64,000 bases of DNA, taken from positions 320,001-384,000 of the forward strand of contig JAHPZA010000006.1 in NCBI GenBank assembly GCA_019058445.1, written 5' to 3'. The notes beneath the pieces are model-generated. The model made no database searches and was not told where the DNA came from. It saw only the letters and a list, made by a program, of their open reading frames with translations. Shown here piece by piece: positions 37,496 to 42,468 of this stretch. The stretch comes from Promethearchaeota archaeon. Its GTDB lineage: Archaea; Asgardarchaeota; Lokiarchaeia; Sigyniarchaeales; SOKP01. Every line of letters starts with the position of its first letter. Position 1 is the first letter of the stretch. The position numbers were made by a program, and so were the translations under genes.

Positions 37496-38440
37496 ATGCC
37501 ATTCAAATCGGATTTACAAGATTCTAACTCATCATTAGTCATCGCACTTGACAAAGTGGGTATTGTTGATTTGGAAAAGAAAGTTGAGATAGTACAAGAA
37601 AATAAGCGCTACTCCTTTTATCCGAAAATTTCTGCTCTCATTAATCTTCCAGCTCAACAACGGGGTATTCATATGTCTCGAACTTCTGAAACAATTGAAG
37701 AGATTATAAATGACGTAATATTCAGACCTACACCTACGATTGAACGTGTTGGCGATAGAATAGTAAAAAAATTGTTAGAAAAACACCCCTATACCACAAA
37801 AGCAGAAGTCAAATTAAAGGGAAGGATTGTTGTTCAAGTCAGAGAAAGCGAACAAAGAACCATCCAAAAATCGTATGATATAAGTTCTTATGTACTAGCA
37901 GAGAAAAAGAAATCTGGCGTTATTGATTTTAACTATTTCATAGGAGCGAGCGCAGTAGGGATTACTGTTTGTCCCTGTGCAAAAGAAATGTCTCAAGAAT
38001 ATGCTGAAGAAATTATTAAATCAAGAAAGGATATTAATATTTCCGAAGAAGACATTAAAAAATTGATAAATATACTTCCTTTCTCCTCTCATAATCAAAG
38101 GTCAAAAGGCACTATTGTTGTACAAATAAAAGATCTAAATAGTCATATAGTTGATGTGTTAGATATTATTGATATTATAGAGGAATCTATGAGCGGACGA
38201 ATTCAATCTGTTTTAAAAAGACCGGAGGAAGCTGAGTTAGTTAGAAGTGCCCATTTAAAGCCTTTATTCTCCGAAGATGTAATTCGAGAAATGGCAAAAA
38301 ATTTTATAACAAGGGACTTTCCAAATTTAGAAGATAATTTTAAAATTAGCTTTAAAATAGAAAGTTATGAATCCATTCACCCTCATAATGTATATGCGGA
38401 ATTAACCACTACATTAGGACATTTAAGAAAACGAATTTAA
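37496..38440 (+). CDS. mptA: GTP cyclohydrolase IV / FolE2 family
   Basis: DLQ, RGIHMSR, GITVCPCA, HNQR, LKRPEE, P.FSED, ESIHPHN. Confidence 0.92.
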   Translation: MPFKSDLQDSNSSLVIALDKVGIVDLEKKVEIVQENKRYSFYPKISALINLPAQQRGIHMSRTSETIEEIINDVIFRPTPTIERVGDRIVKKLLEKHPYTTKAEVKLKGRIVVQVRESEQRTIQKSYDISSYVLAEKKKSGVIDFNYFIGASAVGITVCPCAKEMSQEYAEEIIKSRKDINISEEDIKKLINILPFSSHNQRSKGTIVVQIKDLNSHIVDVLDIIDIIEESMSGRIQSVLKRPEEAELVRSAHLKPLFSEDVIREMAKNFITRDFPNLEDNFKISFKIESYESIHPHNVYAELTTTLGHLRKRI

Positions 38441-38666
38441 ACAGCTATTTTCGAAAATCGTATTTTTTTTAAATATTTTTATTAAATTTATTTTTTTCTT
38501 CTATTCTAATATTATAAAAAAAGCTATGTTATAATTCCTTTAATTTCAGTTTATCAAAGATATCAATCAACTTTCTAATAGGAATATAAAATAAATTCGA
38601 GATTTTAGAGATATGATATCCATTTTCTTCGAATTTTAATAATATATAAGCCTCATTCTAAAGTCA

Positions 38667-40259
38667 TTAAAAATGGCATTCTCTTTTCACATGACTCTCA
38701 GTGGATTCGAGAATTTTTCTCATTAACTTTAAAACTAGTTCATTCTTAATATCTTTTAAAGATTCTTCATCCCATAAATTATTCATCTCATTAGGATCCT
38801 CTTTAAGGTTATATAATTCACCTTCATCACGAAAAATTGTAATTCTCCATTCATCAGTAATTAATGTCCTTGTTTTTTCCTTAATGAAATCATCGTCCAT
38901 TTCAATTAGCACATCATCATTAATCTCAGTATTTGGATTATGAATAATTGGAACCATACTTTTTCCTTGCATGAATTCTGGTATAGGGATTCCCACTAAT
39001 TCCAATATCGTTTCTGGAATATCAATTGAACTTACTAAAGATGAAGATACTGTATTTTTTACCCCATTTGGGATCTTCATTATAAAGGGAATATTAGTTA
39101 AAGTATTATATAAAAATGGACCTTTAAAGAAGAATCTATGCGCTCCTCCTAATTCACCATGATCTGTTGTATAAATTATCACAGTATTCTCTGCCAAACC
39201 TGTTTTTTCTAATACATCTAAAATTTCTCCAATTGCATCATCCACCATTTTTTCCATTCCATAACATGCGGCAATAACTCGCTTAGCATCCAATTCTGTT
39301 AAATCTTCTGCTTTTGGAAATACATTTGGTTGTGTTCCCTCAGTATTCACTGGTTTTGAATAGTGTCTTCTATTTATTAAAGTGCTATTTTCATGATTAT
39401 CATGAAATGTATCTGGAAGAATAACATCTTCTGGTTTATACATATCAAAATACTTTCCTGGGGGGGTGAAGGGGTGATGAGGATCGGGAAAACTACAAAA
39501 TAGAAAGAAATTATCTTTGGAAACTTTCCCTTCATTAAATCTATTCAAATAATCAATGACTCCCTCTTTAACAAACGTAGTAGAATAAAGTTCTTCTGGT
39601 ACATTGTGATTCCATACTTGAATCTTAATATTTGAACTATTTTCCGGTATCATTGATTTACCATATTTTCGTAGAATTTCCCGATAAGTATCTTCAGGTT
39701 CTATTCCCAATTTAAGTTGTAAATTCTCGTCCAAATTCACTTTGGTTACTACCCATTCAAGAAAGTCGGGATGCCCACAATAAATTCCATGTCCCGATAC
39801 AATTTTAAATTCCTCCAATCCAAAATAAATCTCATGATCAGAGAGATTTTTATAATATTTAGGAACAGCAAATTCTTGACTTTTAAGGTTCTTAGTAACA
39901 CGCTTCTTACCAAAACGCTTCTTCTGAATTACGCCGAAATAATTTAAATGAATCTTTCCAAAATTCGCAGTGTGATACCCGTTTGATCTTAAAAGATCTA
40001 CGAATGTTTTAGTATCTTGTGGTAAATTTCTCCCATTTGTATTAACTCCATGAACCGAAGGATATTGTCCTGTAAAAATAGTACTCCTGTTAGGCATACA
40101 GATAGGATTATTACAATAAAAATTGGTAAATTTAATTCCTTCTTTTGCAATTTTATCAATATTAGAAGTCTGCAATACTAAATTGTCATTATAGCAGCTT
40201 AAATGATCCTTTCGCTGCATGTCAGTAATAATAAATAAAAAATTCAATTTTTCGTTCAT
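38667..40259 (-). CDS. Cys-type sulfatase
   Basis: FIITD.QR.D, CMPNR..IFTG (CxPxR), GKIHL, DPHHPF, DHGE. Confidence 0.92.
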   Translation of the reverse strand: MNEKLNFLFIITDMQRKDHLSCYNDNLVLQTSNIDKIAKEGIKFTNFYCNNPICMPNRSTIFTGQYPSVHGVNTNGRNLPQDTKTFVDLLRSNGYHTANFGKIHLNYFGVIQKKRFGKKRVTKNLKSQEFAVPKYYKNLSDHEIYFGLEEFKIVSGHGIYCGHPDFLEWVVTKVNLDENLQLKLGIEPEDTYREILRKYGKSMIPENSSNIKIQVWNHNVPEELYSTTFVKEGVIDYLNRFNEGKVSKDNFFLFCSFPDPHHPFTPPGKYFDMYKPEDVILPDTFHDNHENSTLINRRHYSKPVNTEGTQPNVFPKAEDLTELDAKRVIAACYGMEKMVDDAIGEILDVLEKTGLAENTVIIYTTDHGELGGAHRFFFKGPFLYNTLTNIPFIMKIPNGVKNTVSSSLVSSIDIPETILELVGIPIPEFMQGKSMVPIIHNPNTEINDDVLIEMDDDFIKEKTRTLITDEWRITIFRDEGELYNLKEDPNEMNNLWDEESLKDIKNELVLKLMRKILESTESHVKRECHF

Positions 40260-41825: not shown

Positions 41826-42357
41826 TTATGATTTCTTCTAAATAAACTTGTTAATTTACTTATTTTTATATATTTAAAATTTATGAAAACTCTCATATTA
41901 TTAAAACTCTTAATTAATGAGAATAATGTTAAGAATAAAAGATATTTTTTAAATATTTCCGTAAATGGGAGGTTATTTTTTAAATAAATTTATTTTTTTA
42001 CCCGTAAAAAATTACGGTAATAAAATTCATGAATTAGATTTTATTATATAATATTGTTCATAATATCCTACTTCGTAAAATATGTTTCGATTACTAATTG
42101 TTATAATATTAGTTAAAGCAAATTAATACTATTTTTTTTATAATTTTATATTTTTATAGACCTAATTGTTTCAATTGGTTTTAAATTTCCTCTACTTTAT
42201 CCGTTTAAGTAGATTGCGATTATTCAAAACTTATTTACTTAGGAGGAATAAAAATTATTTCTGTTTCATTTTGCAATATGATTTTAAACAAATTTTGATC
42301 AGAAAAAATTTAAAAATTTGTCTACAATTTTTAAGAATATTCAGTATAATAATACAT

Positions 42358-42468
42358 ATGCAAATAGTTTTTAAAATTGAGAGCTGTGAATCTATTCATC
42401 ATCATGATGTCTATGCTGAATTAAGTACTACAATAGGAGAGCTAAAAAAAAAATTAAAACTAATTTAA
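42358..42468 (+). pseudogene. mptA: 3' remnant of mptA
   Basis: FKIESCESIHHHDVYAELSTTIG versus the mptA C-terminus FKIESYESIHPHNVYAELTTTLG; 56/69 nt identical (42370-42438 vs 38351-38419). Confidence 0.88.

Follow-up and report, generated by a model that had tools for sequence, protein, structure and literature searches.

A second mptA 3' end behind a sulfatase insertion in a Promethearchaeota genome, and its possible origin in integrase-independent recombination

Introduction

How does the end of a conserved gene come to stand a second time, in frame and on the same strand, behind several kilobases of other DNA? The question is raised by mptA, a predicted GTP cyclohydrolase gene in a Promethearchaeota archaeon whose genome (G000) comprises 4.6 Mb in 10 contigs at 31% GC. 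We analysed a 64,000-nucleotide stretch of its contig C6 (G000:C6:320001-384000; hereafter the window, in which position 1 is the first letter), where the final codons of mptA recur about 4 kb downstream, beyond two sulfatase genes. A first-pass annotation, made from the letters of the window, had read this as a cargo islet that integrated into mptA and replaced the 3' end of the gene, either in an attL/attR-like manner or by homology-facilitated recombination. Its reading proved largely sound, although parts of it had to be revised. We favor the interpretation that the displaced copy, here called the orphan tail, is the scar of a homology-assisted recombination event that would not have required an integrase, and we put the chances of this interpretation at about even. 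Taken alone, the locus is an event of an ordinary sort. What stands out is that scars built in this way, free of integrases and strongly biased in orientation, number about 27 in the genome.

Results

Two copies of the mptA 3' end

The gene and the two copies of its end are located as follows.

37496..38440, plus strand: mptA (GTP cyclohydrolase MptA/FolE2 family), intact, 314 aa; PF02649 with E=7.9e-60 over residues 6-301
38345..38440 (codons 38345-38437), plus strand: left repeat copy, the final 31 codons of mptA plus stop (ISFKIESYESIHPHNVYAELTTTLGHLRKRI*), defined by alignments; clade-typical
42364..42468, plus strand: orphan mptA tail, 34 codons plus stop, in frame (IVFKIESCESIHHHDVYAELSTTIGELKKKLKLI*), defined by alignment and tblastn

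According to Pfam, MptA is a full-length member of PF02649 that displays the C-terminal ESIHPHN motif, and a GTP cyclohydrolase function is predicted from its sequence. The motif is (near-)invariant across 23 MptA family sequences. The protein shares 91-92% identity with its closest relatives over the whole length, and its closest relatives in public records are labelled Promethearchaeota, Lokiarchaeia or other Asgard archaea. An MptA query did not find the gene in four genomes of the same genus (G002, G004, G007 and the 99% complete G006), where mptA may be dispensable or replaced.

The recurrence of the mptA tail was reproduced exactly as first described: in a 69-nt core 56 of the 69 bases are identical, seven codon differences are synonymous, and two sulfatase genes lie between the copies. 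Overall nucleotide identity of the two tails is ∼76-81%. The repeat had been said to begin at ESIHPH, but homology starts abruptly ∼8 codons ahead of the motif. It fades toward the far C-terminus, which is variable, and in register no exact run exceeds 8 nt. Upstream of 42364 the reading frame of the orphan remains open through sequence that bears no resemblance to mptA. Moreover, the orphan is altered at family-invariant sites, where HPHN has become HHHD (P to H, N to D), which shows that the constraint on it is relaxed now.

The orphan is the sole second MptA match in the whole genome (tblastn, E=6.2e-7, 62% identity, residues 281-314). A second match was absent in all 40 related genomes searched, so the full second mptA paralog that had been named in advance as speaking against an insertion was not encountered in any of them. 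Those relatives that have mptA (26-27 genomes) gave a single match each.

An insertion between mptA and its ancestral neighbor

The region downstream of mptA contains the following features in addition to the orphan tail.

38441..38666, no strand: AT-rich spacer of 226 bp separating the mptA stop codon from that of sulfatase 1; left insertion junction; no match in relatives
38667..40259, minus strand: sulfatase 1, 530 aa; formylglycine motif CMPNR intact (residue 54); PF00884 and PF16347
40314..41825, minus strand: sulfatase 2, 503 aa; formylglycine motif CTPSR intact (residue 58); PF00884
41826..42363, no strand: spacer of 538 bp, ∼20% GC, unique in the genome, which stops where the orphan abruptly begins (5' edge); putative internal recombination joint
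42585..43185, plus strand: histidine-phosphatase (His_Phos_1) relic; matched by Pfam over positions 18-190 only of the 194-position profile
43331..44374, plus strand: 347-aa gene, weakly matching nucleotidyltransferases; borders the insertion on the right and is, by synteny, the ancestral immediate 3' neighbor of mptA

The 347-aa gene lies 13-541 bp past mptA in 13 of 16 loci of relatives, followed by a TPR gene and further shared genes. Among the six closest lineages, with MptA identities of 88-92%, five have an empty site, at which 13-16 bp separate the mptA stop codon from the 347-aa gene. Since mptA adjoins the 347-aa gene in 13 of the 16 loci, the 4.9 kb at 38441-43330 are a lineage-specific insertion. 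A cargo islet at the 3' end of mptA is thus confirmed by the empty sites, and its cargo does lie between the repeats. However, the insertion amounts to 4.9 kb and not just 4 kb, and it is composite, because the orphan precedes a broken histidine-phosphatase gene and not the native neighbor.

Different or no cargo had been expected at this position in related genomes, and this is what the loci contain. In addition to the 13 loci that are free of cargo, G003 carries a TetR regulator, an acyl-CoA ligase and an open reading frame (ORF) of 238 aa at the same junction, and G019 (L031:2496-10290) and G010 (L038:1814-9646), which belong to two genera, carry a 7.8-kb ubiquitin-like cluster. Encoded in it are a ubiquitin-like protein together with E1 (ThiF) and E2 (UQ_con) proteins and a JAB deubiquitinase, plus one HTH and one coiled-coil protein. 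The presence of such E1/E2/JAB genes in relatives is in keeping with an Asgard affiliation. As three relatives hold different cargo there, the mptA 3' junction is a recurrent insertion point. A search for orphan tails in the cargo of G003, G019, G010, G011 and G018 gave nothing convincing.

By domain content (PF00884, E=1e-42 and 3e-31) and by the C/S-x-P-x-R motif, the cargo pair is assigned to the type I (formylglycine) sulfatases, with predicted activity. The histidine-phosphatase gene is probably a pseudogene. When its frames are compared with intact homologs of 198-204 aa, the ancestral ATG (42585) is 2 nt out of frame and the first usable start is a TTG at 42643, after the catalytic RHG. 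Two further candidates were rejected: the spacers (38436-38670 and 41826-42660), searched against the genome as repeated elements, gave short low-complexity matches only, and the interval 43186-43330, which leads from the phosphatase relic up to the 347-aa gene, was searched for a second, native remnant of the mptA tail and gave nothing above noise.

This arrangement could also be what is left of a complete second mptA. A foreign block consisting of sulfatase 1, sulfatase 2, mptA and a histidine phosphatase gene would then have been inserted behind the resident gene, and the promoter and codons 1-280 of the incoming mptA would have been lost later. Such a history requires one insertion only for the whole 4.9 kb. 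It is consistent with an orphan tail that is not of the resident clade's type, and with the spacing of the orphan before the phosphatase, which resembles that of a real upstream gene (174 bp to the first usable start, 45 bp to a stretch shared with genome G041). However, the 538-bp spacer carries no trace of mptA, homology is limited to residues 281-314, and the 27 relatives with mptA have no second copy. Taken together with the genome-wide orientation bias described below, these observations make a second-mptA remnant unlikely.

Absence of an integrase from the insertion

No integrase or other mobile-element gene is present in the insertion, where Pfam finds sulfatase and histidine-phosphatase domains only. 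The first-pass annotation had reported no integrase in the interval, and the genome-wide search with PF00589 agrees: it located two tyrosine recombinase genes (C9:114618 and C6:27026), which lie more than 290 kb off or on another contig. No tRNA was found at 30-50 kb of the window, and no Rfam family at 37.3-45.8 kb.

A site-specific integrative element that carried a copy of its target's 3' end, and whose integrase has since been lost, would produce the same shape, i.e. an intact gene, cargo and a displaced tail. The e14 and phage 21 prophages in icd of E. coli are of this type, as the element brings its own copy of the 3' end of the target. In archaea, integrated elements that target the 3'-distal part of protein genes are known (PMC6563490), and the other cargo at the mptA junction in three relatives would suit such an origin as well. 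On the other hand, neither the insertion nor its immediate surroundings contain an integrase or mobile-element gene, two tyrosine recombinase genes stand against the ∼27 scars of the genome, and the cargo consists of two metabolic genes and relics. The copies also lack an identical core (≤8 nt), though an old event could have eroded one. The attL/attR-like origin that had been offered as one option is therefore not borne out, there being neither core nor recombinase, and we hold a decayed integrative element to be decidedly unlikely.

Scars of the same shape elsewhere in the genome

For 3350 ORFs, the 45 residues at either end were compared with the genome, and copies located 0.3-20 kb from the parent gene and outside long ORFs were recorded. 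Their positions relative to the parent gene were as follows.

C-terminal orphans: 26 on the same strand downstream; 2 on the same strand upstream; 2 on the opposite strand
N-terminal orphans: 3 on the same strand downstream; 12 on the same strand upstream; 12 on the opposite strand (9 upstream, 3 downstream)

Beyond mptA, the genome contains 26 further scars in which a complete gene is followed by cargo and an orphan tail, ∼27 in all. In these cases, as at mptA, a conserved anchor stands beside new DNA and the orphaned anchor end lies downstream on the same strand. The converse arrangement of an orphan N-terminal fragment, cargo and a complete gene occurs 12 times. The repeats of the scars are 75-414 nt long and 70-98% identical, and end at the stop codon or within a few bases of it (examples are C6:1138612-1142885, C10:31465-35759, C9:408980-410114, C10:613450-621743, C5:112107-115533, C2:88384-90725 and C4:239138-245399). 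Parent genes include those for leucyl-tRNA synthetase, diphthamide synthase, enoyl-CoA hydratase and an AsnC-type regulator, and the products of the cargo include a SNF2 helicase, TPR and LRR proteins and unknowns. An integrase is not among the cargo, and neither of the two tyrosine recombinase genes is near a scar.

These scars bear on the alternatives in several ways. First, the downstream orphans are tails 26 times and heads three times, which points to junction duplications and not to random decay of whole copies, and thus speaks against a remnant of a second mptA. Secondly, relatives have empty sites at the leucyl-tRNA synthetase and diphthamide synthase scars, and in both cases the orphan, together with the flank that follows it, is collinear with the gene end and flank of the relatives; no sliding-identity breakpoints were found along these two genes. 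Thirdly, several scars contain no stop codons and combine high synonymous divergence (pS) with low nonsynonymous divergence (pN), as in the pairs with pS 0.54 and pN 0.04 over 75 codons and with pS 0.72 and pN 0.08 over 46 codons. This combination indicates that both copies evolved as working genes in different lineages. Neutral decay of a duplicate made in place cannot explain those scars, given their very low pN and their lack of stop codons.

Other orphans in the genome look different. Stop codons are present in several of them. The diphthamide-synthase orphan has three and is the sister of its own gene, and in the youngest scar (C9:407025-409175) the copies are 98.5% identical over 196 nt around a 703-bp insert. 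Judged by these similarities, the partners in scar formation range from the same species to different species. Of the two routes proposed in the first-pass annotation, homology-facilitated recombination fits best, especially as 26 other scars in the genome are built alike.

The intact tail is the one typical of the clade

Replacement of the mptA 3' end by incoming DNA, as first suggested, is not supported. The intact tail, and not the orphan, matches close relatives: it agrees with its own clade (P0005, P0008-P0011) at 29 of 32 residues, whereas the orphan agrees with the same clade at only 21-23 residues (21/32) and is closer to the tails of other clades (up to 28/35). No breakpoint was apparent in the sliding identity to relatives, either in mptA or in the 347-aa gene. 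Both genes look native throughout on this evidence.

At the nucleotide level the orphan is about equally distant from all family members (0.20-0.30). Nucleotide distance was ruled out as a means of orienting the event, because synonymous sites are saturated even between the closest relatives. Between the two copies (pS 0.64, pN 0.14), family-variable columns account for 8 of the 10 residue differences (Fisher P=0.002); between the orphan and the clade consensus they account for 6 of 8, the other two lying at invariant columns (P∼0.03-0.04). With moderate support, the orphan probably evolved for the most part as the end of a functional mptA, in a lineage whose extreme tail was different.

These figures are relevant to a third alternative, namely that the insertion itself copied ∼100 nt of the resident tail, for example by replication template switching or at a long staggered break, and that the copy decayed later. 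The high identity of the tail copies in the youngest scar is what such a duplication in place would leave, and so are the sister position and three stop codons of the diphthamide-synthase orphan. At mptA the changes at invariant sites (P to H, N to D) likewise resemble those of a decaying copy. The synonymous divergence of the mptA tails is, however, saturated while pN is 0.14, the differences of the orphan from the clade concentrate at family-variable columns, and several other scars reject neutral decay much more strongly. We consider duplication in place quite unlikely as the origin of the mptA orphan.

Origin of the cargo and fragments found elsewhere

Sulfatase 1 shares 75-78% identity with each member of a syntenic ortholog group (G000, G002, G003, G007) whose members are 82-92% identical to one another, and it consequently falls outside that group. 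No homolog above 77% identity was found for it among 5.8 billion proteins. The closest homologs of sulfatase 2 (74-80% identity) reside at other loci in G002, G003 and G006, and no sulfatase 1 homolog of ≥45% identity stands beside them. Where relatives have homologs of sulfatases 1 and 2 at other loci, only the coding part is conserved. From these comparisons the cargo looks foreign. The sulfatase family is strongly expanded in these genomes: G000 contains at least 15 matches to sulfatase 1, often clustered (examples are C6:284378-301564, C6:966849-979950 and C4:139991-156167), and the situation is similar in G002, G003 and G017.

The closest copies of the phosphatase relic, in G041 and G042, are likewise broken, and its homologs elsewhere occur in different gene contexts. 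At an unrelated place in G041, which is also labelled Promethearchaeota (JAFGGO010000087.1; L176:5500-6336), a broken copy of the phosphatase is fused to codons 223-260 of the 347-aa gene. This piece has 83% identity to the type found in the clade of G000 and 70% to the corresponding gene of G041 itself. A fusion piece of the G000-clade type indicates that fragments of the mptA locus have been captured elsewhere. Going by such sequence affinities, gene pieces do move between these lineages.

Assembly of the locus

Because the genome is derived from a metagenome and related strains co-occur in other samples, we considered a chimeric join of strain variants, and misassembly had also been named as a possible objection by the first-pass annotation. 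When the probable source run was assembled with a different program, the resulting contigs tiled 37400-43500 with no mismatch and an even depth of ∼25-27x, and they span both junctions. These contigs are based on a de Bruijn graph and do not constitute independent data. Nevertheless, as they cross both junctions at even depth, a mis-join is unlikely. A join of strains could not, moreover, link cargo to a gene tail unless a real read path existed, and several orphans carry stop codons, as real pseudogenes do. We regard an assembly artefact as extremely improbable.

An independent sediment sample from another study (X3) yielded contigs with pieces of both sulfatase genes at 98-99% identity. In one of them the spacer upstream of sulfatase 2 (to 42000) is joined through 30 unmatched letters to 37475, just 5' of the mptA start. 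This counts in favor of the second-mptA remnant; the joint, however, could not be placed. Loose ends of X3 contigs occur after 42353, at the 5' edge of the orphan tail, and just before 43330, at the 347-aa gene. Searches of the genome and of the fetched loci gave no placement for the odd X3 joints. Among the sequencing runs listed as containing this DNA there was no RNA run.

Other extra DNA near mptA

Two neighboring intervals of the window also differ from relatives. A RibD_C gene and an amidohydrolase gene, which overlap directly in relatives, are separated here by a gene of 504 aa (34535-36049) whose product carries a DUF4379 treble-clef zinc-finger domain. The DUF4379 gene is therefore another lineage-specific insertion, and no orphan fragment accompanies it. 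At 44375-45737, between the 347-aa gene and the TPR gene, there is 1.36 kb of extra DNA with small ORFs only, where the closest relative (L086) has 76 bp.

Discussion

We hypothesize that the host used its own homologous-recombination machinery to incorporate DNA from a related Asgard lineage, with the conserved 3' end of mptA serving as the homology anchor. A circularised fragment could have entered by a single crossover, or one homologous end could have been combined with one illegitimate end. A site-specific integrase would have played no part. As the tail carries the invariant ESIHPHN motif, selection would keep only those products that retain a complete mptA, and the expected outcome is a complete gene followed by cargo and a spare tail. 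Probably two or more events contributed to the insertion.

This hypothesis should be interpreted with caution, since a number of points weigh against it. The evidence that separates it from duplication of the mptA tail in place is only moderate (P∼0.03-0.04), and the youngest scar indicates that duplication of a gene's own tail, or exchange within the species, also occurs. Saturation at synonymous sites means that distances can neither date nor orient the event. The ∼27 scars are a count from a single genome, and may or may not be an unusual number. None of the genome, metagenome and protein collections searched yielded a donor arrangement, in which mptA would adjoin sulfatase 1 or the phosphatase. 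Finally, both simple models of the crossover predict that the orphan should be the tail of the resident, whereas here the orphan is atypical and the intact tail is typical of the clade. The simple models would consequently need an earlier exchange, in which the atypical tail and the phosphatase arrived together, or a different route must be assumed; alternatively, the orphan itself could have arrived with foreign DNA.

A broader and more speculative possibility, which we think unlikely, is that Asgard archaea of this group move gene cassettes that have no recombinase of their own, in a pop-in/pop-out traffic between species. Ordinary homologous recombination between two copies of a gene end could release the cargo between them as a circle that also carries one tail. 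Such a circle could then enter the same gene of a related cell by single crossover, and the flanking repeats would be recreated. The ∼27 orphan tails and 12 orphan heads would be footprints of this traffic, with the ends of housekeeping genes as landing sites.

The mptA locus and the ∼26 similar loci point to small cargo that was slipped behind conserved genes by the cell's own recombination. Spare gene ends would record the event and, in principle, its donor. If the pattern is general, scars of this kind could offer a countable measure of gene flow between species, and could explain hot spots of insertion that are free of integrases. They also hold a warning for annotation, in that short conserved ORFs downstream of islets may be relics and not genes.

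Three known systems invite comparison. The scars resemble integrative elements at the 3' ends of protein genes in that the target is intact, a duplicate of its 3' end lies past the cargo on the same strand, and relatives have empty sites. The mptA insertion differs from them by the lack of an integrase, of a mobile-element gene and of an identical att core, and by its cargo of two metabolic genes. Moreover, att sites of thaumarchaeal elements are short (median 17 bp) and exact, whereas the scar repeats described here are 75-414 nt long and diverged.

Homology-facilitated illegitimate recombination is the proposed source of "orphaned 3' regions" in the effector-immunity arrays of Rhs and type VI secretion systems (PMC5361080, PMC3240628). 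Those arrays share with the present scars a conserved anchor on one side, displaced 3' pieces downstream in the same orientation, and the lack of a dedicated recombinase. In contrast, the anchors here are archaeal housekeeping genes, the cargo is unrelated to the anchor, and the route is proposed from the products of the event.

Mobile elements described in Asgard archaea include proviruses, aloposons and integrated elements, according to the parts of the reports available to us (PMC8813620, PMC11529989). The elements covered by the available part of the former report are located at tRNA genes and encode integrases or transposases, unlike the scars described here, which have neither a tRNA target nor a recombinase. 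Within the same limits of these sources, the scars and the published elements have in common that they occur in the same group of organisms and that both are lineage-specific insertions by which genes are shuffled.

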